64,000 nt of DNA from Schmidtea polychroa (lineage: Eukaryota): positions 27,282,001 through 27,346,000 of the forward strand of contig CM097885.1 of assembly GCA_044892525.1 (NCBI GenBank), in the 5' to 3' direction. The notes beneath the pieces were generated by a model. The model did no database searches and had not been told where the DNA came from. It saw only the letters and a program-made list of their open reading frames with translations. The translations under genes were made by a program, and so were the position numbers. Below are positions 9,291 to 63,515 of the stretch, one piece after another (the stretch's first letter is position 1; every line of letters begins with the position of its first letter).

Positions 9291-9797
9291 GGATATTGTT
9301 TGATATTTCCCCCCACTTTATTATTATAATTAGTATTATATTATTGAATTAGAATTGACGATAATAAAATTATTGATCTACCTATGAATGCAAACAATCT
9401 ATTTGAACGAACACGAACTCCGCAAGCAACACTGTTACTTTGCCAAGAATTGGGATTAATTCCAATGACTAAACTGTGCACTGTTTGTGGACAAGCAAAA
9501 GACTTGGTATCATGTACCAAGACCAACTTCCCTTTCCGCTGGCGGTGTAAACGGCCTTGCTGTCTAGAAGTAAGTGTACGTGATGGGACTTTCTTTGAGG
9601 CTTCAAAGCTCGATATAAAGGAAATTCTATTTTTTATTTACTACTGGGCATACGAAGAGTGCTCTTTCAAAAAGATTCGCCGTTTTGCTGCGGATTTGCT
9701 GCGTTAATTGTTTTATTATTTATATATTAATAAAAATTAATATGTTATATTAATTTTTAATTTAATTTTAAGTGGGGGGAAATATCAAACAAGAACC
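9291..9797 (+). mobile_element. Internally deleted Merlin (IS1595/ISXO2-like) DNA transposon
   Basis: ~28-bp TIRs GGATATTGTTTGATATTTCCCCCCACTT / AAGTGGGGGGAAATATCAAACAAGAACC; 8-bp TSD AAAAAAAT on both sides. Confidence 0.85.
9384..9707 (+). pseudogene. N-terminal zinc-ribbon part of a Merlin/ISXO2 transposase; catalytic DDE domain absent
   Basis: CTVC...WRCKRPCC...SVRDGTFFEASKL..EILFFIYYWA, typical of Merlin transposase N-termini; ends after 107 aa. Confidence 0.8.
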
Positions 9798-9820: not shown

Positions 9821-10055
9821 TATTAGGATTCTCATCCGTTTTTAAATCACTAAATAATTCCATAAAATTTTATTTAATAAAAGACATCTCAAAAAACTTG
9901 TCTGTTCTTATTTTTGTTATTTAAACAAATTTCAGATTTTCTTAAAATATTTCTTTGATAAATTTCTTCTTTTTAAAATATTTTTCAATAAAAATATTTT
10001 TAAAATTTTTACCAAATTTCTTATTAATCTTTAAGAATCTTTTAACTTCCTCATA
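9821..10055 (-). repeat. 3' LTR (235 bp)
   Basis: Near-identical to 14122-14356 with a few differences; follows the PPT. Confidence 0.9.
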
Positions 10056-13011
10056 TCCCCCTCCTTAAGAAATTTTTTAAGTTTTTCCACGTTTCTTTCA
10101 ATCTTTTTACCATTCTCGTTTCTTAAGATATATCGTCTGTCATGCACTTTCTCGATTACTTTATATGGTCCCTCATATCTGTCCTGGCTTTTGTTGCGTG
10201 TTTCTAATTTTACTAACACATCATCTCCTACGTCAAATTTCCTCCTTTTTTGTTCTTCTTGTTCTTCCTTTACCTGTTTTTCTTTTGACCCGTACCATTT
10301 CTCCCTGCTAATCTTTTTTCCAAAAACTATCTCTGCCGGGCTTATTCCTGTCGTTTTTTGTTTGGTTGCATTTAATGTAAATTCGACTTCTGGTAGTATC
10401 TCTGCCCAATCCGTCTTCCTTCTGTCTCGTAAAGTAGCATTTATCAGCTCTCGTATTGTCCTGAATTGCCTTTCTATCTGTCCATTTGTTTGGTGATGGT
10501 ATGGACTCGAAAAACATAACTTAATATCAAGTTTCTTTGTGAATTCTCTCAACATTCCTGATTCAAACGCCTTCCCACAATCAACTTTTATCTCCTTTGG
10601 GCACCCGAATCTTAAAATCCATTTTTCTAAAATCGATTTTTATTGTTTCTTCGTCTTGTCTTGTTATAGCTGTCAGTACTTGATACTTACTATACTGGTC
10701 TATTATACCCAATATATACTTCTTACGTCCTTTTGTTTCTTGCATTGGTCCACATATATCCACGAATATAATTTCGAACATTTCGGTTGATTCTAATTTT
10801 TTTACTGGTTCCTTCGTTGTAATTGTTATAGCCTTGGTTTTTTGACAAGTCTCACAACTTCGAATAGTTTCCTGAATCTGACTCCACAGGTTTTCCCAAT
10901 ATATCTATCTTTCATATAATCAGCTATCTTCTCGACTCCAGCATGACACAATAGTCTATGTATTTTCTTTATGGTTTCTTGTATCTCGTTTTCAGGTATC
11001 ATCGTTTTCTTTCGTAATTCTTCTTCCAAATTTATTTGTTGATTGGTGCTTCTACCTTCCTCTCTTATCGAGTCTAGTAATCTAGTTTTTATCTTTTCTT
11101 TCTTAGCTTCTTCGTGAGCCATTTGACATTGAACACACGTTTCACATTTAGTTCTGGACACCATGTCTGCATTTTGGTTATTAACACCCTTTCTATATTC
11201 AACGATTATATCCAAATTGCTCAAATAATTGATCCAGGTTTGGAATTGTGAAGTAATTGGCTTCTTGGTTTTCATCATAAACGTGATCGCCTTGTGGTCT
11301 GTCCTTAGTGTGAATCTTCTTCCGTAGAGATAGTGCTTAAAATGAATACAAAAATAGTATACCGCCAATAGTTCCTTCCTTGTAATGCAATATCCTTTTT
11401 CATGGCTCGTCATCGAGTGTGATCCATACGCAATTACTCTCTCCTTTCCATCTTGATCTCTTTGCGAAAGCACTGCTCCAATGGTATCAAAACTGGCATC
11501 AGTATCTAAAATGAACTCCTTTCTCAGATCCGGAAAGCATAGAATCGGTGCCGTTGTGAGTGCTAACTTCATTCCCTCGAATACGTTATTCGTTCCTTCA
11601 GTCCATTCCAGTTTTTTGTTACTCGAACCGCTACATAATTGTTCTAACATCCTTGATTTCTTTGCATACTCACTGATGAATCTTCTATAATAATTACAAA
11701 TGCCTAGAAAGCTTCGATGTTTCTTTACGCAACTTGGCTTCCCAAAGTTTTGTATAGCCTGAATCTTAGAAGGATCGGTTTTTACTCCTTCTTTACTGAT
11801 TATGTGTCCTAAGAATCTGATTTCTTTCTTTATTATTTGACACTTTTCTGGGTTAATCTTTAGTCCTGCTTCATCGATCGCTTTTAATACTTCACTGAGT
11901 ATTGTATAATGTTTTTCTTTACTATTCGAATAAATCAGAATGTCATCCAAATAGACCATTGCTCCATTTATTTTGCCTATTACCTTTGTCATCATTTCCT
12001 GGAACGTACCTGGTGCTGCAGCGATTCCGAACGGCATTCTATTGAAACAGTATTGCCCTTTCTTTGTTGAGAATGCTGTTTTCTCTTGCGATTCTTTGTC
12101 TAACTCCACTTGGTAATATGCATTACCAAGATCGATTGAGCTAAAATAAACGGACCCTCCTAACACATCTAACATCTCGTCTATGGTTGGCATTGGGAAT
12201 GCCTGCCTCTCTGTTACTGCATTCAGCTGTCTGAAATCCAAGCATAGCCTAATATCTTTTTTCTCTTTTTTCCATACGCAGATTAACGGCGTGTTCCATG
12301 GAGAGTTGCATTTCCGTATAATCCCGTTTTCGTACAAATTTTGTATTGCTTCTTCAATTTTTGTTTCCAAATTCAATGGTTGACGATATGGTTTTATGTT
12401 TATCGGTTCACCTCTTGTAATTATCTTATGTTTTACCAAATGCGTGCGACCCACATCCCATTTATCCGCCATAAACACGTTTCCACTGTTCGTTATTATT
12501 TCCTTCAATTTACTATCCTCATCAATCTTTAGATGTTCCAACGCTCGCGTCAATCTTTCTCCATCCTTTATTTGTCTGCCGAATTTTGCTTCAATGTTAC
12601 AAATATAGTTCTTGTCTTTTTCACTAGATTCGATATCTTTTTTTTTGTCAGCCTATATCCAAATGCTTCTTGTAATTCTACTCCTCCAATCACCTCTGGT
12701 GTCACTTTCTCCGCCACAATGAATCTAACTTCCTTAGAAATATCTCCGATAGTTACTTTAACCTTTGTTCTTCCAATTGTCTCTATCGTACTTTCGTTTG
12801 CACATCGTAACTTATCGTCACTTCTAATCAATTGTTGTCCTCGTAACTTGTTAAAACAGTTCACACTCATTAGATTTATTCGTGCTCCGGTGTCTAATAA
12901 ACACTCGAAAATTTCCCCATTCATCATTACTGTTACACTAGGTCTTCCCTGTAGCTTGTTATATACAATTTCTACCTCCTGCCCCGTTTCAATTGTTCCA
13001 ATTCTTTCCAC
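10031..13011 (-). pseudogene. pol (protease, RT, RNase H, integrase) broken by frameshifts
   Basis: ORF fragments contain LLDTGA (PR), YLDDILI (RT), FILDTDAS...TRKELLA (RH), FVDICGP and SSPYHHQTNGQIER...YEGPY (IN). Confidence 0.95.
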
Positions 13012-13118
13012 TTCCTCTTCAAACCTTTCTCTCCTTAGGAACCTGTATACTTTCTCACATACCCTTCCTACATTCTACCACTTTTCTACCCCTTGAGGAT
13101 ATCCCGTCCACTTTTCTG

Positions 13119-14123
13119 TTAGTATATGGCTCCAACCAACTCCTCTACTGGTGGAGCCCTTTTGTTTGGGCACGTCCTACTAAAATTATCTTCATTTGTC
13201 ACTACGCACGATTCCATTTCCTCTTCTTCTTCGATTCCATTAATCCGGCTGTATCTGTTTCCTGTCGGTCTTTGTTTCTCTATTGATTTCTTGTAACTCG
13301 ACTTTGTATAACATTCTTCTGATCTATGACCATTTTTGTTGCATCTTTTACACCGTATTTCTTGACATAACCTTCTTATATGGCCTTCTTTCCAACAACC
13401 AAAACAACTTGGCACTTTTTTATCTGGACAATTCCTACTGATATGTCCGCTTCTGTGACATGTCCAGCACTCTATCTTACTTCTTACTGGACATTCTATT
13501 TTCGTGTGGCCTATTTTGTGGCATAGCCAGCACTCTGGTTCTTCTCGTCGCCTGACTTCTTCTCTTTCATCTTTCTGCTTGTACTGTCCTCTTCTCTGTG
13601 GATCCTGATAGACCACTCTTGCATAACTTTTCAAAGCGTTTATCTGATCTCTCTGTTTGTCCACTTTATCCATCAAAATTAATGTTTCCTTTATCTCCTC
13701 TGTGCTTTTTATCTTCCGCAATATTACTTCTTTGCTGTTATTTTCTCTTTGGTGAATTATTTATTCTCAAACAACCTGTCAACAAGGTCCTCCACTTTTT
13801 TAAAATATGTTTCAATCTCTTCGCCTCTTCTTTTATAATTCAATAGACTTTCCATATCCTTTATTACGTCTCTTTCGTAATCAAATGCCATTCGTAACCT
13901 GGCTTGAAATCCTTCTGCTTTTTAAACCGTTTTCGTATATTTCTCCAATAGATCCTCGTCGATCATGCATGCGGTTAATCTTTCCTGTTCTTTTTTATTG
14001 ATGCCTTTAGCATCGAAATAGATCTCGGATCTTCTGATGAATTTTTTCAATTCATCACCTTGACAGAACACTTTTGGCAATAATCTTTCGGTAATCGCGT
14101 CGGTGTTTACCGCTGCCACCATA
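13119..14123 (-). pseudogene. gag with four to five CCHC knuckles, frameshifted
   Basis: ORF 13119-13721 has CWLCHKIGHTKIEC, CWTCHRSGHISRNC, CFGCWKEGHIRRLC and CKRCNKNGHRSEEC; the N-terminal part lies in ORF 13922-14164. Confidence 0.9.
14109..14121 (-). promoter_or_regulatory. Primer binding site, tRNA-Leu type
   Basis: TGGTGGCAGCGGT directly abuts the 5' LTR. Confidence 0.75.
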
Positions 14124-14356
14124 TTAGGATTCTCATCCGTTTTTAAATCACTAAATAATTCCATAAAATTTTATTTAATAAAACATATCTCAAAAAACTT
14201 GTCTGTTCTTATTTTTGTTATTTAAACAAATTTCAGATTTTCTTAAAATATTTCTTTGATAAATTTTTTCTTTTTAAAATATTTTTCAATAAAAATATTT
14301 TTAAAATTTTTACCAAATTTCTTATTAATCTTTAAGAATCTTTTAACCTCCTCATA
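14122..14356 (-). repeat. 5' LTR (235 bp)
   Basis: Direct repeat of 9821-10055, flanked by the PBS and the TSD ATTTT. Confidence 0.9.
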
Positions 14357-14839
14357 ATTTTATTTTTATTATTCGGGGATTTTTCCCAAAATGTTTTAGA
14401 AAAGTACATATTTTTGGTAATTCATTTATTGAATTATAATTAAAAACATATCTAACTCACATTTTTTCGAAAATATTCCAAAATACTTGCGTACTACACG
14501 CGTAAACACACAATTCAATCGGCCGAAACAGAAGTTATCACTATCATCATCAGGTTACCTACATTCACTAGGGATGAATAACTATACAATATTAAAAGAA
14601 TGAGAACTTTTTTCCAATTTCACCACTGATTATTTTTTCCATTCAATTTATTAAAAAGAGAGCTTGAAGACTATAAATCAGTAATATATCGATGTTTTTT
14701 GAGTAGGTAGATAGTGGCCTACGGGAACAATTACCCCCCCCCCGGGGGGGGGGGGTTTGTTCCCAAATTTTTATTACGCAATTGTTCCCAACTCATTTTT
14801 TTGCTTTCAGGGATTTTTGGTCCAAATTTTTTTTTATCA

Positions 14840-15290
14840 CACTATAGTGAGAGGGTCTTGATGGTCCTGGGAATTTCTATACAAAAATCCGACTATCAAT
14901 AAAAAAGTCAAGGATTATTCACACTATAGTGAGGGGGTCTCGATGGTCCTGGGATTTTCAATACAAATAAAATTTTTTCTATACAAAAATCCGACTATCA
15001 ATAAAAAAGTCAAGGATTATTCACACTATAGTGAGGGGGTCTCGATGGTCCTGGGATTTTCAATACAAATAAAATTTTTTCAATACAAAAATCCGACTAC
15101 CACTAAAAAAGCCAAGGATTATTCACACTATAGTGAGGGGGTCTCGATGGTCCTGGGATTTTCAATACAAAAAATTTTTTTCAATACAAAAAGCTGGTCT
15201 ACACTAAAAAAGCCAAGGAATTTTCAGACTATAGTGAGGAGGTCTCGATGGTCCTGAGAAATAGGTGGTCTACACTAAAAAACGTGGTAA
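14840..15290. repeat. Subterminal ~102-bp tandem repeats (left arm)
   Basis: cacactatagtgagggggtctcgatggtcctggga recurs at 14920, 15022 and 15124. Confidence 0.9.
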
Positions 15291-15294
15291 ATTT

Positions 15295-15895
15295 TTCAAT
15301 TACAGTAAATTACGGTCCAAATTTTTCAATTAAAGTAAATAATGGTTCTAAAAATTAAATTAAAGTTAATTATGGCTCAAATTTTTCAAATAAGGTAATT
15401 ATGGTTCTAAAAAATTAAATTAAAGTAAATTAAGGTCCTAAAAATTAAATTATAGTAAATTATGGCTCAAATTTTTAAATTACAGTAAATTATGGTCCTA
15501 AAAAATTAAATTACAGTAAATTATGGTCAAACATTTTAAATTAAAAAAAACAATGGTTCAAATTTTTCAAATACAGTAAATTATGGGTCTAAAAATTAAA
15601 TTACAGTAAATAATGGTTCTAAAAATTAAATTAAAGTAAATTATGGTTCTAAAATATTAAATTACAGTAAATTATGGTCCAGATTTTTCAATTAAAGTAA
15701 ATAATGGTCCAAATTTTTAAATTAAAGTAAATTTAAGTTCTTAAAAATTAAATTACAGTAAATAATGGTCCAAATTTTTAAATTAAGTAATCAATGGTAA
15801 AAAATTTTAAATAAGTAAATTAAAGTACTAATTTTTAAATTAAGTAATCAATGGTAAAAAATTTTAAATAAGTAAATTAAAGTAAGATTTTAAAA
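15295..15895. repeat. ~30-bp AT-rich tandem array (mirrored at ~29790-30505)
   Basis: Repeated unit resembling ttacagtaaattatggtccaaatttttcaa. Confidence 0.85.
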
Positions 15896-16179
15896 TTTAA
15901 TTACAAAATAATAGAAGGTGTTTGAGAATTGAAATTTTTTAATGAAAATTTTTATGAAATAATTTTTAAGTAATTTTTAATAGAAATTTTAATGAAATAT
16001 TTTTCAATGGTAATTTTTAATGGAAATTTTTATGGAATAATTTTTTAAGTAATTTTTAATGTAAATTTTTATGAAATATTTTTCAATGATAATTTTAGAT
16101 GGAAATTTTTAAGATAATTTTTAATGAAAATTTTTATGACATATTTATCAAAGACAAATTTTAATAATAATTCAACAAC

Positions 16180-17710
16180 AAACCAACAACTTAGTACCAA
16201 CAACCAGTAACTTACGAACATATATTAACAACCAGATACCTACAACTAGTTACTAACAACTAGTTACATGATACTAAGTAAATACAACCACCTAACAAGT
16301 ACTAACAACCAAAAACAAGCAACCAACCAGGTACCAGTTACCAACTACTAAGTACCTACAACCAACTAGTTACCTGATACCAAGTACTTACAACTAAATA
16401 CTAACAACCAGTTACCTGATACCTAGTACTTAAAACTAGTTACTAACAACCAAAAACAAGCAACCAACTAGCTACCAAGTACTAACAATCAAAAACAACT
16501 AGCTAACAACTAGATACCAAGTACCTACAACCACCTACCTATTAACTAGCTACCAAGTACTAACAACTAACAACAACCAGGTACTAGATACCAAGTACTA
16601 ACAACCTACAACAACTAGGTACTAAGCATTATCAACCAAGTACCTAAAACCACCTAACAAGTACATACAACCAACATCAACCAGGTACCTACAACTAGAT
16701 ACTAACAAACAGTTACGAAGTACCTACAACCACCTACCCATTAACTAACTACAACCAGCTAACAACTAACAACCAGATACCTACTACTTACAACCAACTA
16801 CTAAGTACTAACAACCACCTAACAAGTACATACAACCAACATCAACCAAGTACCTAAAACCACCTAACAAGTACATACAACCAACATCAACCAGGTACCT
16901 ACAACTAGATACTAACAAACAGTTACGAAGTACCTACAACCATCTACCCATTAACCACCTAACAAGTACCTACAACCAACTACTAAGTACTAACAACCAA
17001 AAACAACCAACTAGGTACTAGATACCAAGTACTTACAACAAACATCAACCAAGTACTTACTACCAACTACCAAGTACTTACAACTAGTTACTAACAACTA
17101 GTTACCTGCTACCAAGTACTTACAATTAGTTACTAACAACCAGTTACCTGATACCAAGTACCTACAACCAACTACTAAGCATTAATTACCTACAACTAGT
17201 TACTAACAACTAGATACCAAGTACTTACAACCAACATCAACCAGGTACCAGTTACCAACTACTAAGTACCTACAACCAACTAGTTACCTGATACCAAGTA
17301 CTAACAACCTACAACAACTAGGTACTAAGCATCATCAACTAACTACTAAGTACCTACAACCTACAACTAGATACTAAAAACCAGTTACCTGCTACCAAGT
17401 ACTTACAACTAGTTACTAACAACCAACCAACTAGGTACTAGATACCAAGTACTAACAACCAACAACAACCAGGTACTAAGCATTATCAACCAACTACTAA
17501 GTACCTACAACCAACTAACAACCACCTACCAAGTACTAACAACCAGTTACCAACTACTAAGCATTAATTACATACAACTAGTTACTAACAACTAGATACC
17601 AAGTACATATAACCAACAACTAAGCATTATCAACCAAGTACTAACAACCAAGTAACTTACCTAGTACTAAGCACTGTCAACTAGATACCAAACACTTACA
17701 ACCAGATGAC
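16180..17710. repeat. Strand-asymmetric A/C-rich scrambled satellite (mirrored at ~28405-29460)
   Basis: Shuffled short words acaacc, aagtact, aactag and gatacc. Confidence 0.9.
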
Positions 17711-17977
17711 CACATGAAATTATTGGTTAAATATGAAAATAAGGATTATATTTAGTTGTTTAGTAAATTATGGTGTAAAATTAAGAAATAAAGAATAATT
17801 AGGTAAATTAAGGATAAGTAAATTAAAGTTAAAAATTTTAAATTAAAGAAAACAATGGTTCAAAATTTAAATTAAAGCTAAAGTAAGATTTTTAAATTTA
17901 TTATCAAAAGATTGAATAACCACCAACTTTTTTGAGAAATGTAATTTATAATGAAAATTTAAATGGAAATTTAAATG

Positions 17978-18019
<42 letters not shown>

Positions 18020-18436
18020 TACTAATAATTCAACAGTTACCAACAATCGGTTACTGATTATTTTTTAACTAGGTGCTAACAAATACTTACACCATGATAC
18101 CACGTACTAACTAACTCTCAAACAACCAGATACTTACAACTAACTACTAAATATTCTTTATTGTATTTTATGAAATGCTTTTTAAATTAATTTTTTATCT
18201 ATCTTCAAAAATATATTTAATTACAATCATTAGAAAAACCTTTTCAAATTTAACAAAAATGTTGATTTTCATCAAAAAAACCACAACTCATCACCACGTG
18301 GAATTCAAAATAATTACAATGAAAGACTAATGAAATCTAATTTACAAAACATTCTTCTTTTAAATGATAACTTATTATTGCAATGTAAAAATCGCATTCA
18401 ATAAAAACTTATTGTTGATCAGTTTTATTATATATA

Positions 18437-21400
18437 CTCTGAGTTTATCCGACAGGATGTTTTGACCCCCTAAGGGTACAGGTCGTAAGGGTACTGGTCG
18501 TAAGGGTATTAGTCGTAAGGGTACTAGTCGTAGGGGTATTGGTAACACTCAACCCCCATCTACCCATTAACCACCTAACAAGTACCAACAACCAAGTCTC
18601 AAACAACTAAATACTAAACACTAACAACCAACAACAACCAGACACTAAGCATTATCAACCTACAACTATATAACAACAATCAGTAAACAACACTGTACCA
18701 ACTACCAAATACAAGAAACCAACAACTTAGTACCAACAATCAACTAACAACACATAAAAATAATAGCAATTAAATAAAAAAAATTATTCTTCATCGCATA
18801 CACTATTTTCTTATCAAAATCTAAAAAGTCAACCAACTACTTACAACCAACAACTATGTACTAACAAATTGATCTTTAAAAGCAAATACTCATCACTTGA
18901 AAAAATTAGATGAAAAATTAATTGAACTCAAGGCACTTTTAAGATATTTGAACTCAAGGCATCAATAACTTGGTAAAAATTGATTAAATTATTGTAAAAA
19001 TTTAAATTATTCAAAATATACTAAATTAAAAAAAATATAATTAATGGACAAGAAAGAACTTTAAATTCTAGTCATTGATCATTCAAGTTAATATGAATCA
19101 ACTAAGATAATAAATTAATAAGAATTTTGAAATAAGATCTAGTAGATAATTGATTTAGATTGAATAAATTAATTGAAATAAAATTAATTTTAATTATTTT
19201 TTTTTAAAAGTAATACATGTACTCAAATTGATTGACTGATTTCTCAATATATTCAAAAAATCTGTATGAATTCATTACAATTATCAAAGTCAGCAATCTA
19301 CAATAAAAATAATTATCATTAAATTTCAAAAGAGACTAGAAAACTAATGATAAAATCTATCAAACCAGTAAATTCATTTAAATGACAATAATTGGTATAT
19401 CCAAGTGAATTCTCTAATAAAATCATCTAAAAAGCATCAAATTTCCCTGAAATATCTATATCTTTTAAGATTAGTATCTTATCGATAAGTACTTGTTAAA
19501 GATCATATATTCACCTCAAACTAACAAGATTCCTTAAAATCCCTTAAATGGCTATATTTCAACCCTTAATTCGTATTATTACAAATATCATCTAAAAAGC
19601 ATCAAATTTCATTGAAATAACTCTATCCTTAAAGATTGATATTTTAATGACAAGTACCCTTAAAAGGTTATATATTTACCTCAGACTAATAAGATTGCTT
19701 AAAATCCCTTAAATGACTATAATTCTAACTTTAATTCGTATTATCACGAATATTTCCCTATAAAACATGTAAAATCATTAACCCTAAATAATTTATAAAA
19801 TCTAATGATAAAACTGGTTATAATTAATTTTTTGTTAATCACTGTACTCGATATTTTAAATAAATATTACTACAATATAACTGACTAGGTCCCATTGAAA
19901 GATTAAATTTATCCATTCAATAAAATATATTTCTTCAAATGATCATTTTTACCAATATTCAACCGATTTAATTACTAATTAAAATCAAGATTCCTTCCAA
20001 TAAAGATCAATTTTATTTAGTCGATGTTTTAAGTCCATATTTCTAAACTTTTGTCATTCTCCGCCTAAATAAAGATAAAAATAAATTAAAGTTGATATCA
20101 ATCCCATTTATCTGTAAAGTTTTCATCGTCAAAACCAAGTAAATCGACATTGTTCTAAAACATAAATCTAAATTCATATACAATGAATTAATCACAACCT
20201 AATAAAACAATATAATTATTATTGATACATAACTGACTAATTGACATTTCCCTTAAAACATTGATATTTTACCAACAGCATACTTAAAAAATCATATATT
20301 CCCATCTTAACCCATCTCTCATTAAATTCAATCGACTATATCCCCCTTACAATGATATATTCCCAACTTATCTGATCTCTCATTAAAATCAATCGACTAT
20401 ATCTCCCTTACAATGATATATTTCCATCTTATCTGATCTCTCATTAAATCTAACCGACTATATCCCCTTAAAAAATCATATATTCCCACCTTATCTGATC
20501 TCTCATTAAATCTAACCGACTATATCCCTTTAAAAATCATATATTCCCATCTTAACCCATCCCTCATTAAATCTCACCGACAATATCCCATCTTATCCGA
20601 TCTCTCAGCAAATATTTCTACCCCCCTCATTAAATTTAACCGACAATATCCCATCTTATCCGATCTCTCAGCAAATAATTCTACCCTTTTAAACATCTAT
20701 CCGATTATATCCCTTATTTTCCCTAAAGATTCCGCCCACTTGAGCCCTTTAATATATATCAATCCTCTTAAAATCCTCAGAGAAATTCAAAAATATGACT
20801 TTTAATTAATTGTTATAGAACCAGACAAATAATAAGAGCCCATTAAAAGATCAAAATTCACTAAATTTTCTACAAATATTTACCATCAAATACTGGAGAT
20901 GATATATATTGATTGATCATAATTCTTCATCGATTCAGCCAATCATTTTCAAGCAATAACAGCAAACTAAATTTCTTTATATCCTACAATAATTATCACG
21001 TAAATTTAAAGTCATTGATAAAGTTGGTTTCTTAGCTTATGTTTTTTAAAGATCATCAATGTGTAAATATTCTTAGAAAATTATTGAAAAATTATTTATT
21101 CAAATATATTACAAAGTTATCATCAGAAATTTATTCTATCACTTAATTATTAACCTAATTGTCAATGAAATTAATTTTTATTTAAAAACTATTCAATAAA
21201 ATACAACTAATTATCAAGAAATTAATTAAATTTATCAATTAAATTTATCACCATTAAAACTTTTAATCAGTCAACATGAAATTCTTAGAAAATTATTCAA
21301 TATCCTCATCAAAATTTATCCTACCACTTGATTATTGTACAAACTTTAATTATTAACCTCATTAAAAATAAATTTTTATTTAAAATTAAAAAACAAGTCA

Positions 21401-21831
21401 ATAAAAATACATTCAATTATCAAGAAATTAATTAAATTTACCTTAGAATTAGCATTAAATTACAGATATTCACAAAAATTACGGAAATTCATGAAAATAA
21501 TGGAAATTCACAAAAATAATAGAAATTCACAAAATTGATAAAAATTCACAAAAAACGATAAAAATTCACAAGAATGATAGAAATTCACAAGAATGATAAA
21601 AATCCACAAGAATAATAGAAATTCACAAAAAAGATAGAAATTTACTTGAATAAAACCATCAACTCTAAAATTTATCAATGAATGCCTTATACAAATTTGC
21701 CTAAATAATCATTCAAATAAAAACATTAAATACCTTTACGACTAATACCCTTGCGACATGTTGAATGTGAGTAGTACCCTTGTGAGCAATACCCATAGGG
21801 GGACAGAATATTTTGTCGGATAAACTCAGAG
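18437..21831. mobile_element. Nested non-autonomous TIR element in left arm (TA-flanked, Tc1/mariner-like)
   Basis: Ends CTCTGAGTTTATCCGACA...TGTCGGATAAACTCAGAG with TATATA on both sides; 15-bp subterminal repeats taagggtactggtcg. Confidence 0.65.
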
Positions 21832-24005
21832 TATATATTAATTAACTCATTTTTCATTGAATCAGTCAAATTATCATAAATTTCGATAAAAATTCTAAAG
21901 TGGTAAGCAATGTAAAGAGAAATATTCTTTAAACTTTGATAAAATTAACAATGAAGGTGGTAAGAATCTTCATTAAAGTGAGGAAATTATTCATTACTCG
22001 ATTCAAATGGGTGAAAATAATTGGTAGAATAATTCATTAATGGATCATTGAATGGGCATAGATAAGAAGAAAGTTGATAAGAATGGAAATATATTAATTG
22101 AATTTATTTAAAATTATTTCATAAAATTCATAAATTTAATAAAAAAAAGAAATATTTGTGGGGAATAATTAATCAAAATCGGCGGAATATAAGTAGAAAA
22201 TCGGGGTGGGGGGTTATAGGCGAATAATTAATGGAAATTCGAGGGGATATAAGTGAATAACTAATGGAGAATCGGGGGGGGGGGGGAATATAGGGATTAA
22301 ATAGTAGAGAATAATAGTGAATATAAGTGAGGAGGATATATAATTTAAGCTAGTTTATTACATAACAAGCCGTGACTAGTCTATTACATAACAACCCGCG
22401 TCTAGTTTATTACATAACAAGCTGTGAATGGTATTTTATTGAAAATTATTGATTAGGTCTTTTTTATAATTTTTGAATAAGTACTTTAATACCTTAATAA
22501 TTTAAATGTTTTGATTTACACTAAATAATTTCTAAATCAATTACCCTTTTCAATCAAAATAAGATCAATTATATACCTTTTTATAAAATTCAGTTAAAAT
22601 TAAATACTTTCCACTAAATTTAAAATATATAAATTTTATAAGTTTTTCAAATTTTCAAATAATGTAAATAAGAAATTAATCTATTACCAGTTACATACTT
22701 ATTGACGGAATTACGTAATAGAAATAAAAAGTAACTTAGGTTATTTTTTTTTCAAAATTATGACTAAGTCCTTTAATATTGTAATAATAGCTATTTATTA
22801 ATAAATTTATTATTTTACGTTAACTATTTCAAAAACAATTATCATATTATTAATTATATTACCCTTTTTAATCAAAATAAGATAACTATTCAAATAGATG
22901 ATTTTTATAAATTACAATAAAAATTAAATACTTTTACACTAAATTTAAAAATATAAATTTTATAAGTAAATGTGAATAAGAAATAAGTGTATTATCAGTT
23001 ATAGACTTTTAAAACTTATTGATTAGATATTAAAAGTTACTTTTTTTTCAAAAAGTCCTCTAATATTGTATTCTATTCATTATTAAATTTACTATTTTAC
23101 ACTAAAATATTTTAATTTAGAAAACAATCATCATAATATTAAATATGATACTTCAATCAAAATAAGTTAATACTCAAATATTTGTCTTATAAAATACAAT
23201 CAAAATTAAATACTTCACAAATTTTAAGTAAAGTTTTTTAAATTCTCAAATAAATGTTAACAAGATATTAATTTAATAATCATTATATACTTTTTAAACT
23301 TATTATTGGAATAAAACAATAGAATGATATTGAAAATATATACAATTTTAAAATATAATTAAAATTAAATTACATACTTTAAAAATTTAGTAAAATGTTG
23401 GTAAAATACCATTCACAGCTTGTTATGCAATAAAATAGTCGCGGGTTGTTATGTAATAGACTAGTCACGGCTTGTTATGTAATAAACTAGCTTAAATTAT
23501 ATATCCTCCTCACTTATATTCACTATTATTCTCTACTATTTAATCCCTATATTCCCCCCCCCCGATTCTCCATTAGTTATTCACTTATATCCCCTCGAAT
23601 TTCCATTAATTATTCGCCTATAACCCCCCACCCCGATTTTCTACTTATATTCCGCCGATTTTGATTAATTATTCCCCACAAATATTTCTTTTTTTTATTA
23701 AATTTATGAATTTTATGAAATAATTTTAAATAAATTCAATTAATATATTTCCATTCTTATCAACTTTCTTCTTATCTATGCCCATTCAATGATCCATTAA
23801 TGAATTATTCTACCAATTATTTTCACCCATTTGAATCGAGTAATGAATAATTTCCTCACTTTAATGAAGATTCTTACCACCTTCATTGTTAATTTTATCA
23901 AAGTTTAAAGAATATTTCTCTTTACATTGCTTACCACTTTAGAATTTTTATCGAAATTTATGATAATTTGACTGATTCAATGAAAAATGAGTTAATTAAT
24001 ATATA

Positions 24006-27000
24006 CTCTGAGTTTATCCGACAAAATATTCTGTCCCCCTATGGGTATTGCTCACAAGGGTACTACTCACATTCAACATGTCGCAAGGGTATTAGTCGTA
24101 AAGGTATTTAATGTTTTTATTTGAATGATTATTTAGGCAAATTTGTATAAGGCATTCATTGATAAATTTTAGAGTTGATGGTTTTATTCAAGTAAATTTC
24201 TATCTTTTTTGTGAATTTCTATTATTCTTGTGGATTTTTATCATTCTTGTGAATTTCTATCATTCTTGTGAATTTTTATCGTTTTTTGTGAATTTTTATC
24301 AATTTTGTGAATTTCTATTATTTTTGTGAATTTCCATTATTTTCATGAATTTCCGTAATTTTTGTGAATATCTGTAATTTAATGCTAATTCTAAGGTAAA
24401 TTTAATTAATTTCTTGATAATTGAATGTATTTTTATTGACTTGTTTTTTAATTTTAAATAAAAATTTATTTTTAATGAGGTTAATAATTAAAGTTTGTAC
24501 AATAATCAAGTGGTAGGATAAATTTTGATGAGGATATTGAATAATTTTCTAAGAATTTCATGTTGACTGATTAAAAGTTTTAATGGTGATAAATTTAATT
24601 GATAAATTTAATTAATTTCTTGATAATTAGTTGTATTTTATTGAATAGTTTTTAAATAAAAATTAATTTCATTGACAATTAGGTTAATAATTAAGTGATA
24701 GAATAAATTTCTGATGATAACTTTGTAATATATTTGAATAAATAATTTTTCAATAATTTTCTAAGAATATTTACACATTGATGATCTTTAAAAAACATAA
24801 GCTAAGAAACCAACTTTATCAATGACTTTAAATTTACGTGATAATTATTGTAGGATATAAAGAAATTTAGTTTGCTGTTATTGCTTGAAAATGATTGGCT
24901 GAATCGATGAAGAATTATGATCAATCAATATATATCATCTCCAGTATTTGATGGTAAATATTTGTAGAAAATTTAGTGAATTTTGATCTTTTAATGGGCT
25001 CTTATTATTTGTCTGGTTCTATAACAATTAATTAAAAGTCATATTTTTGAATTTCTCTGAGGATTTTAAGAGGATTGATATATATTAAAGGGCTCAAGTG
25101 GGCGGAATCTTTAGGGAAAATAAGGGATATAATCGGATAGATGTTTAAAAGGGTAGAATTATTTGCTGAGAGATCGGATAAGATGGGATATTGTCGGTTA
25201 AATTTAATGAGGGGGGTAGAAATATTTGCTGAGAGATCGGATAAGATGGGATATTGTCGGTGAGATTTAATGAGGGATGGGTTAAGATGGGAATATATGA
25301 TTTTTAAAGGGATATAGTCGGTTAGATTTAATGAGAGATCAGATAAGGTGGGAATATATGATTTTTTAAGGGGATATAGTCGGTTAGATTTAATGAGAGA
25401 TCAGATAAGATGGAAATATATCATTGTAAGGGAGATATAGTCGATTGATTTTAATGAGAGATCAGATAAGTTGGGAATATATCATTGTAAGGGGGATATA
25501 GTCGATTGAATTTAATGAGAGATGGGTTAAGATGGGAATATATGATTTTTTAAGTATGCTGTTGGTAAAATATCAATGTTTTAAGGGAAATGTCAATTAG
25601 TCAGTTATGTATCAATAATAATTATATTGTTTTATTAGGTTGTGATTAATTCATTGTATATGAATTTAGATTTATGTTTTAGAACAATGTCGATTTACTT
25701 GGTTTTGACGATGAAAACTTTACAGATAAATGGGATTGATATCAACTTTAATTTATTTTTATCTTTATTTAGGCGGAGAATGACAAAAGTTTAGAAATAT
25801 GGACTTAAAACATCGACTAAATAAAATTGATCTTTATTGGAAGGAATCTTGATTTTAATTAGTAATTAAATCGGTTGAATATTGGTAAAAATGATCATTT
25901 GAAGAAATATATTTTATTGAATGGATAAATTTAATCTTTCAATGGGACCTAGTCAGTTATATTGTAGTAATATTTATTTAAAATATCGAGTACAGTGATT
26001 AACAAAAAATTAATTATAACCAGTTTTATCATTAGATTTTATAAATTATTTAGGGTTAATGATTTTACATGTTTTATAGGGAAATATTCGTGATAATACG
26101 AATTAAAGTTAGAATTATAGTCATTTAAGGGATTTTAAGCAATCTTATTAGTCTGAGGTAAATATATAACCTTTTAAGGGTACTTGTCATTAAAATATCA
26201 ATCTTTAAGGATAGAGTTATTTCAATGAAATTTGATGCTTTTTAGATGATATTTGTAATAATACGAATTAAGGGTTGAAATATAGCCATTTAAGGGATTT
26301 TAAGGAATCTTGTTAGTTTGAGGTGAATATATGATCTTTAACAAGTACTTATCGATAAGATACTAATCTTAAAAGATAGTGTTATTTCAATGAAATTTGA
26401 TGCTTTTTAGATGATATTTGTAATAATATGAATTAAGGATAGAAATATAGTCATTTAAGGGGATTTTAAGGAATCTTGTTAGTTTGAGGTGAATATATGA
26501 TCTTTAACAAGTACTTATCATTAAAATACCAATCTTTAAATATTGATATATTTCAGGGAAAATGATTCTTTTTAGATGGTTTTATTAGAGAATTCACTTG
26601 GATATACCAATTATTGCTATTTAAATGAATTTACTGGTTTATTAGATGTTATCATTAGTTTTCTAGTCTCTCTTGGAATTTAATGATAATTATTTTTATT
26701 GTAGATTGCTGACTTTGATAATTGTAATGAATTTATACTGATTTTTTGAATATATTGAGAAATCAGTCAATCAATTTGAGTACATGTATTACTTTTAAAA
26801 AAATAATTAAAATTAATTTTATTTCAATTAATTTATTCAATCTAAATCAATTATCTACTAGATCTTATTTCAAAATTTTTATTAATTTATTATCTTAGTT
26901 GATTCATAATAACTTGAATGATCAATATTTTTTTTTATTTACTGGATGACTAGAATTTTTTTTTGTCCATTAATTTAATTTTTATGATATTTATTTCGAA

Positions 27001-27540
27001 TAATTTAAATTTTTACAATTATTTAATCAATTTTTACCAAGTTATTGATGTCTTGAGTTCAATTAATTTTCCATCTAATTTTTCAAGTGATGAGTATTTT
27101 CTTTTAAAGATCAATTTGTTAGTACATAGTTGTTAGTTGTAAGTAGTTGGTTGACTTTTTAGATTTTGATAAGAAAATAGTGTATGCGATGAAGAATATT
27201 TTGTATTTAATTGCTATTATTTTTATGTGTTGTTAGTTGATTGTTGGTACTAAGTTGTTGGTATCTTGTATTTGGTAGTTGGTACAGTGTTGTTTACTGA
27301 TTGTTATATAGTTGTAGGTTGATATTTGTTAATTTCTCGATGGGTTTTGATGGTGGTTGTTAGTAGTTGTTGTTTGAAACCTAGTGGTTAGTACTTAGTA
27401 GCTAGTTAATGGATAGGTTGTGGTTAAGTGTTACCAATACCCCTACGACTAGTACCTTTACGACCAGTACCCTTACGACTAATACCCTTACGACCTGTAC
27501 CCTTAGGGGGGTCAAAACATCCTGTCGGATAAACTCAGAG
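24006..27540. mobile_element. Mirror copy of the nested TIR element in right arm
   Basis: Same TIRs at 24006 and 27540; carries an extra ~155-bp internal repeat unit near 26380-26540. Confidence 0.65.
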
Positions 27541-27975
27541 TATATATAATAAAACTGATCAATAATAAGTATTTATTGAATGTGATTTTTACTTTGCAAT
27601 AATAAGTCAGTAGTTATCATTTAAAAGAAGAATGTTTTGTAAATTAGAATTCATTAGTCTTTCATTGTAATTATTTTGAATTCCACGTGGTGTTTTAAAG
27701 TGGTTGAGTTGTGGTTTTTTGATGAAAATCAACATTTTTGTTAAATTTAGACATTTTGAAAAGGTTTTTCTACTGATTGTAATTAAAATTATTATAGAAG
27801 CTGTATAAAAAATATTAATTTAAAAAGCATTTCATAAAATACAGTGAAGAATATTTAGTAGTTAGTTGTAAGTATCTGGTTGTTTGAGAGTTAGTTAGTA
27901 CGTGGTATCTAGTTGTAAGTATTTGTTAGCACCTAGTTAAAAAATAATCAGTAACCGATTGTTGGTAACTGTTGA

Positions 27976-28045
<70 letters not shown>

Positions 28046-30599
28046 CATTTAAATTTTCATTATAAATTACATTTCTCAAAAAAGTTGGTGGTTATTCAAT
28101 CTTTTGATAATAAAATTAAAAATCTTACTTTAATTTACTTATTACATTACTTATTTAAAAATTATTACTTTAATTAAATTCTTTAAAAATTATTACTTTA
28201 ATTTACTTATTTAACTTTAATTTAATTTTTTAGAACATTGATTACTTATTTTTAAAATTTGGACCTTAATTAACTTTAATTTAATTTTTTAATTTTAATT
28301 TACTTATCCTTAATTTACCTATTTATGCTTTATTACTTAATTTTACACCATAATTTACTAAATAACTAATTATAACCCTTATTTTCATATTTAACCAATA
28401 ATTTCATGTGGTCATCTGGTTGTAAGTGTTTGGTATCTAGTTGACAGTACTAGGTATCTTGTACTTGGTTGTTAGTACTTGGTTGATAATGCTTAGTGTC
28501 TGGTTGTATGTACTTGGTAGCTAGTTGTTAGTAACTAGTTGTAGGTAATTAATGCTTAGTAGTTGGTAACTGGTTGTTAGTACTTGGTAGGTGGTAGCTA
28601 GTTGGTTGTAGGTACTTAGTAGTTGGTTGATGATGCTTAGTACCTGGTTGATGTTGGTTGTAGGTACTTAGTAGTTGGTAATTAGTGCTTAGTACCTGGT
28701 TGATGTTGGTTGTAGGTACTTAGTAGTTGGTAGCTAGTTGGTTGCTATCAGGTAACTAGTTGTTAGTAACTAGTTGTAGGTATCTGGTTGTTAATACATG
28801 TTCGTAATTTACTGGTACTTGGTATCTAGTTGTTAGTTGTTAGCGGGTTGTTAGTAACTAGGTATCTAGTTGTTAGTACTTGGTTGATAATGCTTAGTAC
28901 CTGGTTGATGTTGGTTGTTAGTACTTAGTAGTTGGTAGCTAGTTGTTAGTAACTAGTTGTAAGTACTTGGTATCTGGTTGTTAGTTGTTATCTGGTTGTG
29001 AGTAGTTGGTATCAGGTTGTTAGCTGGTTGATAGTACTTGGTATCTGGTAATTAGTTGTAGGTACTTGGTTGTTTGAGAGTTATTTAGTACGTGGTATCT
29101 AGTTGTAGGTACTTGGTATCAGGTAACTGGTTGTTAGTAACTAGTTGTAAGTACTTGGTAGTTGGTTGTTAGTTGTTGGTATCAGGTTGTAAGCTGGTTG
29201 ATAGTACTTGGTATCTGGTAATTAGTTGTAAGTACTTGGTTGTTTGAGAGTTATTTAGTACGTGGTATCTAGTTGTTAGCTGGTTGTAGCTAGTTAATGG
29301 GTAGGTGGTTGTTAGTAGTTGGTATCAGGTAACTAGTTGTAGGTATCTAGTTGTAGGTATCTGGTATCAGGTAACTGATTGTTAGTAACTAGTTGTAGGT
29401 ATCTGGTTGTTAATACATGTTCATAAGTTACTGGTTGTTGGTACTAAGTTGTTGGTTTGTTGTTGAATTATTATTAAAATTTGTCTTTGAAAAATATTTC
29501 ATAAAAATTTTCATTAAAAATTATCTTAAAAATTTCCATCTAAAATTATCATTGAAAAATATTTCATAAAAATTTCCATCTAAAATTATCATTGAAAAAT
29601 ATTTCATAAAAATTTCCATTAAAAATTACTTAAAAAATTATTCCATAAAAATTTCCATTAAAAATTACCATTGAAAAATATTTCATTAAAATTTCTATTA
29701 AAAATTACTTAAAAATTATTTCATAAAAATTTTCATTAAAAAATTTCAATTCTCAAACACCTTCTATTATTTTGTAATTAAATTTTAAAATCTTACTTTA
29801 ATTTACTTATTACATTACTTTAATTTACTTATTTAAAAATTATTACTTTAATTTACTTATTTAAAATTTTTTTACCATTGATTACTTAATTTAAAAATTT
29901 GGACCATTATTTACTTTAATTTAATTTTTAGAACCTTAATTTACTTTAATTTAAAAATTTGGACCATAATTTACTTTAATTGAAAAATATGGACCATAAT
30001 TTACTGTAATTTAATATTTTAGAACCATAATTTACTTTAATTTAATTTTTAGAACCATTATTTACTGTAATTTAATTTTTTAGGACCATTATTACCTTAT
30101 TTGAAACTTTGATCCATAATTTACTTTAATTTAATTTTTTAGAACCATTATTTACTTTAATTTAAAAATTTGAGCCATAATTTACTATAATTTAATTTTT
30201 AGAACCATAATTTACTGTAATTCAATTTTTAGAACCATTATTTACTGTAATTGAAAAATTTGAGCCATAATTTACTGTAATTTAATTTTTTAGAACCATT
30301 ATTTACTGTAATTTAATTTTTTAGGACCATTATTTACTGTAATTGAAAAATTTGAGCCATAATTTACTGTAATTTAATTTTTTGAACCATTATTTACTGT
30401 AATTTAATTTTTTTGGACCATTATTTACTGTAATTTAATTTTTAGAACCATAATTTACTGTAATTCAATTTTTAGGACTATAATTTACTGTATTTGAAAA
30501 ATTTACCATGTTTTTTAGTGTAGACCACCTTTTTCTCAGGACCAAGGAGACTCACCTTAATTTAATTCGAAAAATCCATGCTTTTTTATTGATAGTCGG

Positions 30600-31380
30600 A
30601 TTTTTGTATTGAAAATATCCTGAGACCTTAAATTACCACGTTTTTTTAGTGTAGACCAGCTTTTTGTATTGAAAAATTTTTTTGTATTGAAAATCCCAGG
30701 ACCATCGAGACCCCCTCACTATAGTCTGAAAAATCCTTGGCTTTTTTAGTGGTAGTCGGATTTTTGTATTGAAAATATCCTGAGACCTTAAATTACCATG
30801 CTTTTTTAGTGTAGACCACCTATTTCTCAGGACCAAGGAGACTCACCTCACTATACTCTGAAAAATCCTTGGCTTTTTTAGTGGTAGTCGGATTTTTGTA
30901 TTGAAAATATCCTGAGACCTTAAATTACCATGCTTTTTAGTGTAGACCACCTATTTCTCAGGACCAAGGAGACTCACCTCACTATAGTCTGAAAAATCCT
31001 TGGCTTTTTTAGTGGTAGTCGGATTTTTGTATTGAAAATATCCTGAGACCTTAAATTACCATGCTTTTTTTGTATAGACCACCTATTTCTCAGGACCAAG
31101 GAGACTCACCTCACTATACTCTGAAAAATCCTTGGCTTTTTAGTGGTAGTCGGATTTTTGTATTGAAAATATCCTGAGACCTTAAATTACCATGCTTTTT
31201 AGTGTAGACCACCTATTTCTCAGGACCAAGGAGACTCACCTCACTATAGTCTGAAAAATCCTTGGCTTTTTTAGTGGTAGTCGGATTTTTGTATTGAAAA
31301 TATCCTGAGACCTTAAATTACCATGCTTTTTTAGTGTAGACCACCTATTTCTCAGGACCAAGGAGACTCACCTCACTATA
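30600..31380. repeat. ~131-bp tandem repeat expansion specific to the right arm
   Basis: tgagaccttaaattacca recurs at 30781, 30913, 31044, 31175 and 31306. Confidence 0.9.
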
Positions 31381-32168
31381 GCGTGATAAATCCTTGGCTT
31401 TTTTATTGATAGTAGGATTTTTGTATAGAAAAAAATTTTATTTGTATTGAAAATCCCAGGACCATCGAGACCCCCTCACTATAGTGTGAATAATCCTTGA
31501 CTTTTTTATTGATAGTCGGATTTTTGTATAGAAATTCCCAGGACCATCAAGACCCTCTCACTATAGTGTGATAAAAAAAAATTTGGACCAAAAATCCCTG
31601 AAAGCAAAAAAATGAGTTGGGAACAATTGCGTAATAAAAATTTGGGAACAAACCCCCCCCCCCCCCCCCGGGGGGGGGTAATTGTTCCCGTAGGCCACTA
31701 TCTACCTACTTTTTTGATACTCACGAATTTTCGGCACTGTCTCGGCACTATACCAAGATGGCAAATCACACGAGTCCTTCGCTACAATTTAGTCTAACCA
31801 AACTGATATCCATGGTCATGCACTATTTTTTTTAAATTCAAAAGTTTATTGTAATCATATATTAATCGCCAATTAATATATACTCAGTTTCAACTTAAAA
31901 TTACTTTTTTAATCACAAATATGTCTTATCTTTATCATGAATTATATTTTACAAAATAATCATTTTTAAATATTCATCATTGAATTTTACCAATTTGTTA
32001 TCCAAATTAAATTCATAATTACTTATTGTAAATAAATAAATAAATGTTTTAAGAACAAATAATAATAATTTAATATTTTTACAATTTTGAATTTAAGACT
32101 TAAGAACCATAAACTTTTAACAAGTAGTTTGTTTTAAATATTACACATAATTGAATTAGATTCAAAAA

Positions 32169-35100
32169 ATGTTGAAATTAATTATCATTTGTATTTCTAT
32201 ATTAAATTCCATATTATGTATTGACAAACCTCGAGGAATACCATTTTCAAGTATATCATATTTGTTAATAAACTAAAAAATATTAAAATTTTAGAATTAT
32301 CATTATATCAGCCAAATAGTCCATTTAAGTGTCTTGATGGATCAGGAGTAATAAGTTGGATGAAAGTAAATGATGATTATTGTGACTGTCGTGATGCAAC
32401 TGATGAGCCTGGTACGTCTGCATGTTCTAATGGTGTTTTTCAATGCGATAACAAGGGCCACAAACCTCAAATTATACTTTCATCTCGTGTTAATGATGGT
32501 GTATGTGATTGTTGCGATGGCCAAGATGAATACTCTGGAATAATAAATTGCACTAATACATGCTGGTAATTAAATGTGTTATCAAAACCAGTGATGACAA
32601 CTTTCTCAGGGAACTAGGTGCAATTGCTAGAGAGGAAATGAAACGCAATAAGGAAGCTGCTGAAAAAGGACACAAAATATATCAAGAATACATAAAGCAG
32701 GTAAATTAAATAGACAAATGGAAATGAAAACTAAAACATAAAAAATTTTGAAGTATGAGACATCGGTAACAGAAAAGAAATCTCGACTAGAAGCGATTAA
32801 TGAGCAATTTAAAGTTCTCAGTGAAGAAAAGCTCGTTGCAGAACGATCAAAAACAGATTCTGAAAATAATGAATCAGAAGCCAAACGGATTTTTGAAGAA
32901 AATTGGAAAAATTTACAAGCGGAAAATGAAACAAAATTGGAACGCTATAAAATATCTAAAGCTTTTAAGGAATTGGATTTCGATGTTAATGAAAGGTTAA
33001 TATAAAACTGAAGTAAATGGATTCAATATTTTCTATAGAGTAACATTTGAAGAATTACAAAGCCATCATGAATTTGATATCGATCAAAATGGAGATGTTT
33101 CACCCGAGGAGGCCAAAGTAGATTTTATTTATTAGCTTTTTTTATTACAGTAATTAAAATAATTAATATTTAAAAATCATAAATCACGTGACACTGACGT
33201 AATTGTCTTTGTTGTTTCTTTTCAAATAACTTTGACTCACAAAGTACCAATCAATACCGCTGTGTGTACATGCATGTATTTAACATGATTTTATTGGCCA
33301 ATGTTCAAAATTGACTTAAATATTGTATCCAATAAGGAAAAGGAATGCATTAAGAAGCAACCAATGAAAATTGATTAAAATACTTTTTTTAATTTTTTAT
33401 CTTTTTCTATAAATTTATCGTATTTTCTGTATTGTTTTAATGATTTGAGAATGAAATGATTATTTTTAACGATAATTTTCAAATTTATTGGGATATATTG
33501 ATAGATTAAGCCCTCTCATGAGAACAGCCGGTTGAGGGGGGGAGTAGACGCGATAAAAGCGAGGCGATAACTTCTCGATGTCGGTAAATAATGAAAGAGA
33601 AAACTAGTGATAAAACTCCAAAATTTAACACATTTCTGGTGTGCTGTTAAGGGCCTTACTCAGGATATTGGGGAGGGGGGAGGGGGAGGAGGCACAATGC
33701 ACAGGGCTGTTGGGCAAACACAATTGCGTTTTATCCAAAATCCGTAATATTTACAAAGCAAATCCAATAAAAATCTAAACAAATATTGAATTATTTGGTA
33801 CCCATTTATCAGGCAGCTTTGTACGTGTATTATAAGGAAGTACAATCTAACAAGGTCACTACAGAGCTGAATTCTTTAAAATTAACAAGAGTGAAACATT
33901 TGCAGATATTTTCTACTTCTCCCTAAACATAGATTTCCGAATTGCAGAGGGTATTGTAAAAGGTAACAGAAGTACATAAAGCGGTCCCGGGTTTACAAAC
34001 CGCTTACAATTACTTGCTTACGCAATCAGTTGCATCACTATTCAACCTGCATAGAATCGCAACTTGCCTATTTTATTGTCGTTATTAAAATGTGGAATAT
34101 TAGTTGAACTAATGAGCATCATTGTTATTATTATCAAGGAGTACTTGAGTGAAAGGGAATCGGTAAATGAGCTTGAATTCACTGAAATTGTCTGGCCGAA
34201 TATCAAACAAATATTCAAATTCAAAGAAAGAGCAGAAAACGATTTGCGTCATGATTTCGACGGGGCAGTTCCTGATCCAGTCGATCAAGCCCCAGAAGAT
34301 GAAAAACTCCCCGAAGAAACTCCGCCTGAAGAGCCAGTTAAAATGGAATATGATGACGAGACAAATAGACTCATTTCCAGTAAAGCGTTATTTTGTCTCA
34401 ATAAACAATGTCCTTATTACCAATTGTGATTTTTCCAGTTGCCAATGACGCCCGGAACAGTTACAACGAATTGAATGAGAAATTTATGAAACTGGAGAAC
34501 GAGAAAAAGTTTGATTTTTTTTAAAAATTTCGATTTTTCAAATAATCTAATCGATTATCGATTTTCTAATTTATTCTCCCTTTATATTGTTACAACTGTA
34601 AATAATTTATTTCGTGAATTCATCTTTCTTAACCAAATTCAAGAACCACTGGAACCACGAGGACCCTATAGGAATTACAAAACCGGATCCTACAACCTTG
34701 ACCTAATATAATATCTATAGCTCACCACAGTTGTTTAAATCAGTTTTTCTCAACCGGGAGCCACATGAACCCTTAGGAGGACCACAGCGCAAAATCAGGC
34801 ACTTGGGGCCACTGCGCGGTCAAAATAGACAAATATGAAAGCAATTACAATTCAATATTTATTTTATGATAAAAATATCAATTAATAAATATTTAATAAT
34901 TTAAATTGATATTGATATAATAAATCGATTTAATAAATGATATTTGCATTTATAATAATAATAATAATATTTCATGAAAGTTTAAAGCTGTAGGTTTACA
35001 CAATTTGTAAGCATCTGAATTGAGTCACATTTCCTAAGTTATTTATTATAACTACTTGTCAATATCAAGTAAAGTGGCACTCAGACATCCTCCTACCTAC

Positions 35101-63396: not shown

Positions 63397-63515
<119 letters not shown>

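Follow-up and report, generated by a model that had tools for sequence, protein, structure and literature searches.

A gene-less, palindromic 17-kb element with Polinton-like ends and a 6-bp target-site duplication in Schmidtea polychroa

Architecture and insertion of the palindromic element

The window analysed here is a 64,000-nucleotide stretch of the Schmidtea polychroa genome (assembly GCA_044892525.1, contig CM097885.1, positions 27,282,001 to 27,346,000; 29% GC) that contains a palindromic element of 17,009 bp (14702-31710). Self-comparison of the window and alignment of the arms resolve this element into a left arm on the forward strand (14702-22438; 7,737 bp) and an inverted right arm on the reverse strand (23402-31710; 8,309 bp), which together account for 94% of its length. 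The arms enclose a spacer or loop of 963 bp (22439-23401; 15% GC) composed of degenerate repeats of ~320 bp with ~72% identity among themselves. These lengths agree with the arms of ~7.7 and ~8.3 kb and the spacer of ~960 bp given in the original prediction, which was made from the sequence alone. The element has 5'-AG...CT-3' ends: its termini read AGTAGG, followed by a degenerate 4-bp repeat. The terminal block (14702-14992, forward strand), which begins AGTAGGTAGATAG and is alike in both arms except for differences in homopolymer runs, is presumed to act as replication origin and integrase end. Its first 27 letters occur solely at 14702 (forward) and 31710 (reverse), with no occurrence expected in 100 shuffles, and a C-run/G-run palindrome within it could form a sub-terminal hairpin (14723-14764; predicted DNA fold of -24.0 kcal/mol for 14702-14800).

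Tandem repeats make up 46% of the element. Inward from the left terminus, all on the forward strand, lie a 102-bp tandem array of 3.8 copies (14874-15256; related to a 131-bp array of 5.6 copies at 30697-31432 in the right arm), 30-bp and 13/79-bp arrays (15289-16136; mirror copy at 29490-30492), and a degenerate CAAC-rich satellite (16182-17712) that is ~500 bp longer than its mirror copy (28466-29456). Further in, each arm includes a 3.4-kb block with inverted ends of its own (18437-21831; mirror copy at 24006-27540). The ends of this block are marked by an 18-mer at 18437 and 21814-21831, each with a TATATA flank, and by 15-bp repeats within the left end; these probably represent the termini of another, more abundant family with terminal inverted repeats (TIRs).

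The predicted lack of coding capacity was borne out. In the left arm and spacer, four stop-free frames of at least 70 amino acids occur, against 5.2 in 200 block shuffles. Among 82 frames of at least 36 amino acids, drawn from the left arm, the spacer and the outer part of the right arm (whose inner part is identical to the left), one matched Pfam, with two weak matches (E 1e-4) on the translated 102-bp tandem array. An Rfam scan of the window gave no matches, and tblastx of the palindrome against a neighbouring element bearing a protein-primed DNA polymerase (pPolB) likewise gave none. No coding signal for pPolB, integrase, capsid, ATPase or protease was found in the palindrome, and its classification as an autonomous Polinton is rejected on this ground.

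The inverted repeat ends exactly at two copies of TTTTTG, at 14696-14701 and 31711-31716 (both forward strand; flank comparison); the probability that two random 6-mers of the window agree is 0.0008. The insertion interrupts a high-copy host repeat, whose left part (14431-14695) resumes at 31717 by contig comparison; inverted ends of this repeat were searched for and none were found. Further evidence comes from the contigs of four of 24 sequencing runs (X1, X2, X5 and X7, from three studies), which were compared with 14360-23480; this interval extends from the left flank through the left arm and spacer and takes in 79 bp of the right arm. The assembly may derive from X1; X5 and X7 belong to other studies. 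A set of 155 X1 contigs tracks the left flank up to 14702 and then, past a single TTTTTG, passes into letters resembling the right flank; their loose-end consensus agrees with that flank over its first 22 letters. Because these empty-site contigs, which also support the left copy of TTTTTG, carry it once, the length of the target-site duplication (TSD) is fixed at 6 bp; they lie in other copies of the host repeat and do not necessarily represent an allele of the locus at 14702-31710. The palindrome is thus a true insertion with the perfect 6-bp duplication that had been predicted, as evidenced by one filled site.

Identity of the arms and abundance of the family

Global alignment of the two arms distinguishes three zones. 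The terminal 291 bp differ in homopolymer runs only; given outer arms that diverge by 5.5%, the probability of at most one mismatch over this length is ~1e-6. The outer arms (~15.0-19.45 kb) are 89-99% identical by segment and 94-95% identical in non-repetitive parts, with tandem copy number differing greatly; in one array, insertions and deletions of repeat units amount to as much as ~600 bp. The inner zone is a tract of 2,815 bp that shows no difference between its left copy (19459-22273, forward strand) and its right copy (23564-26378, reverse strand). Its edges are sharp, one falling within a 165-bp tandem array and the other short of the spacer. Beside the spacer, the arms retain a 3-base homopolymer difference and three substitutions, and therefore the inverted repeat had reached the spacer before the inner tract became uniform. 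The giant palindrome originally described accordingly has real inverted arms, but these are not uniform, being identical at the termini and over the inner 2.8 kb and 89-99% identical elsewhere.

Letters that vary within the family bear on how this pattern arose. Of 498 variant positions, 40 were listed and 29 used, after removal of two in the flank, six in the spacer, one in the right arm and two with a low share in X1. The right arm carries the alternative family letter at nine of the ten outer positions used, whereas the 19 inner positions show the window letter in both arms without exception, necessarily so as the tract is identical; a Fisher test on this sharing was dropped as circular, given that the inner tract is defined by identity. 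At four of the 19 inner positions, 92-99% of X1 depth shows a letter other than that of both arms. As these rare letters sit on both arms, one arm was the template for the other at a time when this lineage had already left the family mainstream, and a recent copying of this kind is supported unless the identity is an effect of assembly. The copying was patchy and repeated, since divergence of ~5-6% in the outer arms contrasts with its absence from the termini and inner tract. Of the copy-back origin first suggested, the arm-to-arm copying is thereby retained, evidenced by rare letters in both arms, and the single event is given up as too simple for outer arms that differ by 5-6%.

The palindrome belongs to a family that is very abundant in all four runs. 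Contigs matching the compared stretch number 339,910 of 10,851,225 in X1, 55,151 of 2,426,954 in X2, 54,493 of 3,768,793 in X5 and 2,587 of 2,360,915 in X7, counts that include the flank repeat and in which contig depth does not equal copy number. Most are 90-99% alike, and all 30 bins of 14360-23480 are covered in every run. The spacer is covered by contigs in four of four runs, at a depth well below half that of the arms in each, which may reflect variable spacers or poorer capture of AT-rich DNA. Several letters of the present copy are absent from the contigs of X5 and X7, which show presence only. Great abundance and many variants go together with an absence of other flanks among the 24 loose ends listed (of which there are 10,058 more). 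A depth peak at 21680-21984, about three times that of neighbouring bins, takes in the end of the internal block at 21831, and 110 X1 contigs continue from that end into (AAT)n (loose ends at 21838); together these observations suggest a separate, abundant TIR family situated beside microsatellites. Elsewhere in the window, 63221-63730 represents an old, short relative of the palindrome family, with a 15/17 match to the terminus at 63221 followed by satellites of the types present in the palindrome, (TTA)39 and a diverged version of its sub-terminal unit.

The same contigs speak to the possibility that the whole element is false, namely a fold-back chimera or a collapse of the inner arms during sequencing or assembly. 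Zero differences over 2,815 bp is what a collapse would produce, no contig piece among those listed spans the whole compared stretch, and the junction of left arm and spacer is crossed solely by pieces that reach 22-25 letters into the arm (short of a 31-letter rule). However, the TSD and the empty site exist, divergence of ~5-6% and tandem-unit differences of hundreds of bases separate the outer arms, the stretch next to the spacer retains three substitutions, and one X7 contig, from another study, bridges the junction of spacer and right arm (23343-23456). An artefact of this extent is therefore highly improbable. That the perfection of the inner tract, taken by itself, was produced by assembly is a lesser claim, which is unlikely but deserves more weight.

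Likely Polinton membership and the surroundings of the element

The ends, duplication and length of the palindrome recall the Polintons, or Mavericks. A 6-bp TSD is characteristic of Polintons (PMC10045372), and vertebrate Mavericks have (AGT)2 or (AG)3 ends, a length of 16,862 +/- 1,678 bp and TIRs of 46-1,447 bp (PMC8097293). The ends of the palindrome match five of the six letters of the (AGT)2 motif. Taken together, the evidence makes it likely that the palindrome is a foldback element with Polinton ends, itself non-autonomous and mobilized in trans by Polinton enzymes. This assignment upholds the original classification as a non-autonomous Polinton in so far as the element is gene-less, abundant and mobile, with a 6-bp TSD, AG ends and a Maverick-like length; its weak side is that no autonomous Polinton with these termini was found within the window.

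Several other points tell against the assignment. The terminus is not an exact (AGT)2 or (AG)3, the match in length to Mavericks could be a coincidence or a matter of selection by the reader of the sequence, and a 6-bp TSD is known for this one insertion alone, there being a single filled site. The neighbouring pPolB-bearing element (see below) has no DNA or tblastx similarity to the palindrome, and AG ends and a TSD are both absent at its arm limits. As for arm copying, the perfect inner tract could in part be an effect of assembly, and the comparison of arm letters rests on 29 rows drawn from 40 of 498 variant rows. A search of viral contigs with the terminal 18-mer gave no matches. Three matches to it in metagenome contigs are taken as chance, with 11-12 of the next 42 letters in agreement; one of these contigs (L001) has internal inverted repeats (389-3763 and 4369-5441) and is otherwise unrelated to the window.

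The main competing assignment is a very large foldback element derived from a cut-and-paste DNA transposon of another superfamily, which would have its 6-bp TSD and AG start by chance. Foldback-like elements, Galileo among them, typically have long gene-less TIRs with tandem arrays (PMC4168063), each arm holds a second TIR-like pair, and no helper Polinton was found in the window. However, Galileo leaves duplications of 7-8 bp (PMC4168063), Ginger1 and Ginger2 leave 4-5 bp, and IS3EU/GingerRoot, although they share the 6-bp footprint, have TA..TA or TG..CA termini (PMC10045372); moreover, the inner pair sits 3.7 kb inside the TSD-bounded ends. Membership in IS3EU/GingerRoot is rejected because the palindrome ends AG..CT, and membership among Galileo or P-type foldback elements because of the 6-bp TSD and the lack of a transposase. 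A cut-and-paste origin is accordingly quite improbable.

The nearest Polinton-like coding sequence is a decayed element at 40981-61186, 9 kb from the palindrome, where remnants of a protein-primed polymerase are recognizable (Pfam DNA_pol_B_2, E 6.5e-6 and 2e-5, both slightly under the curated cut-off). It has inverted arms of 4.5 kb, each with an open reading frame (ORF) of 277 amino acids that weakly matches RING fingers, and contains nested insertions. From the outside to the inside, its arms mismatch by 5.6, 2.2, 1.1, 2.2 and 0.4%, and at the inner arm limit an ORF is cut, its two copies diverging beyond this point. This gradient and the cut ORF imply that inward arm growth by copying also occurs in an element of this genome that has coding sequence. 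The decayed element cannot be named as the helper, as it shares no sequence with the palindrome and has neither AG ends nor a TSD at its arm limits. Its lost true ends were sought with 16-mers from 90 bp at and beyond the right arm limit, which found only the arm itself and one match with two mismatches. Parts of 42668-43533 recur in the core of this element, near Gypsy-like fragments, and fragments of a non-LTR retrotransposon reverse transcriptase (39132-40368; weak RVT_1) adjoin its left arm.

The remaining surroundings comprise one gene and further mobile elements. The gene for glucosidase II beta (PRKCSH; 32169-38378) probably starts at 32169, at a distance of 460 bp from the right end of the palindrome, and a satellite with an 11-bp unit, extending over ~2.2 kb (35588-37744), lies between its exons. 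Its top protein match is 95%, compared with 67% for the best named relative, from the flatworm Macrostomum, and 61-70% in other phyla, values that by themselves place the host only weakly among flatworms. To the left, a Gypsy-like long terminal repeat (LTR) element (9821-14356) with near-intact pol pieces and 235-bp direct repeats that are 98% identical ends 345 bp before the palindrome. A further element of ~500 bp (9297-9790), with inverted ends recognized by eye, encodes a cysteine-rich ORF of 107 amino acids that we take to resemble the N-terminus of Merlin/ISXO2-type transposases; Pfam gave no such match.

Possible routes of arm copying and comparison with known systems

The element appears to have retained Polinton-type ends alone, and the retroviral-like integrase of a presumed helper Polinton would insert it, leaving the 6-bp duplication. 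Its terminal repeats have probably grown inward until the 1-kb loop alone stayed unique, with arm-to-arm copying of patches placing satellites and nested foreign ends gained by one arm into both. The likeliest route runs through replication: the strand displaced during protein-primed replication could fold into a hairpin with an 8-kb stem and a 1-kb loop, in which one arm templates the other, and such copying would keep the ends identical while sometimes converting kilobases inside. A model of Polinton replication inferred from sequence involves protein-primed copying of a racket-shaped single strand (PMC4196379), and panhandles are the standing model for restoring end homology in protein-primed replicons such as adenovirus and PRD1 (PMC11886824). 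Set against the hairpin route, direct evidence for panhandles is said to be still lacking (PMC11886824). In addition, TIR extension and the copying of nested transposable elements (TEs) into both arms are known from Galileo, which belongs to the P superfamily and lacks a polymerase (PMC4168063), and hence arm copying need not involve Polinton replication.

The alternative leaves Polinton membership as it stands and differs in the copying route alone: a Polinton-ended element, moved by a helper integrase, whose arms were equalized in the chromosome by gene conversion or gap repair, without hairpin replication or packaging. Patchy tracts with sharp edges, in the 165-bp array and short of the spacer, are consistent with this, as are the same inward gradient in the decayed, insertion-bearing element at 40981-61186 and the behaviour of the Galileo TIRs (PMC4168063). 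The near-identical terminal 291 bp beside a perfect TSD instead fits copying of the ends around transposition. As to the copying step considered by itself, the odds between the hairpin route and ordinary chromosomal gene conversion are about even. The complete account by chromosomal conversion is a serious possibility that nonetheless stops short of being probable. The most elaborate account, in which the family consists of genome-sized, gene-less hairpin satellites of Polintons that are produced by snap-back pPolB copying, packaged into capsids at 15-18 kb and reinserted by a helper integrase, is doubtful.

If the hairpin-satellite reading is true, the conversion tracts would preserve a natural trace of the racket or panhandle intermediate proposed for Polinton replication, and the abundance of the family could make a free or packaged form easier to catch than that of any autonomous Polinton. 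Maverick particles have not been observed (PMC8097293). If the arms were converted in the chromosome only, the element is a Polinton counterpart of foldback elements, less surprising yet likewise undescribed in the literature searched. An abundant gene-less family that combines ~5% arm divergence with fresh conversion tracts makes the replication model testable from genome data, and long perfect inverted repeats bear on genome rearrangement and assembly quality. The genomes of Dugesia planarians show Maverick expansions, among which palindromic forms are not described in the available text (bioRxiv 10.64898/2025.12.11.693146); such families may be a hidden part of these expansions, if the present host is related. 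Nor is an element of this type described in the accessible portions of four other reports (PMC3014272; PMC6431247; bioRxiv 10.1101/2023.08.22.554363; bioRxiv 10.1101/2024.01.15.575659). A literature search found no description of gene-less giant palindromic Polintons, which is weak evidence given that it did without most subscription papers, Repbase and supplements; families of this kind may be present in repeat libraries or in the supplements of papers on planarian genomes.

Copy-back or snap-back defective viral genomes are mirror-image molecules that keep their ends and lose their genes, as the palindrome has done. It differs from them in being integrated, heritable and satellite-rich, with diverged outer arms. 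A defective interfering genome proper would moreover depend on a helper for replication and packaging, and interfere with that helper. The TIRs of Galileo, the foldback element of Drosophila, are much shorter than the arms of the palindrome. In other respects the resemblance is close, as Galileo has long, dynamic TIRs with internal repeats, inward extension, nested TEs in both arms and ends that are its best conserved parts, although it differs from the palindrome in possessing a P-superfamily transposase and a 7-8-bp TSD (PMC4168063). With Polintons and Mavericks, the palindrome shares the 6-bp TSD, 5'-AG(T) short-repeat termini, a length of ~17 kb and TIRs (PMC8097293; PMC4196379; bioRxiv 10.1101/2023.08.22.554363), while it lacks their genes for pPolB, integrase, ATPase, protease and capsid. 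Its arms of 7.7-8.3 kb compare with TIRs of 46-1,447 bp in vertebrate Mavericks (PMC8097293) and with gene-bearing TIRs of ~2 kb in butterfly polintons (bioRxiv 10.1101/2025.02.07.637071). Polintons without polB are known from Pieris mannii, where they are apparently mobile and have inverted ends (bioRxiv 10.1101/2025.02.07.637071), and Tlr1 of Tetrahymena is likewise a polymerase-less, mobile or multi-copy element with inverted ends (PMC5499653); in contrast to the palindrome, as far as these sources describe them, both keep other genes and are not near-complete palindromes. The present analysis of the S. polychroa element contributes the empty-site evidence and the three-zone arm pattern, in which rare letters are shared between the arms.

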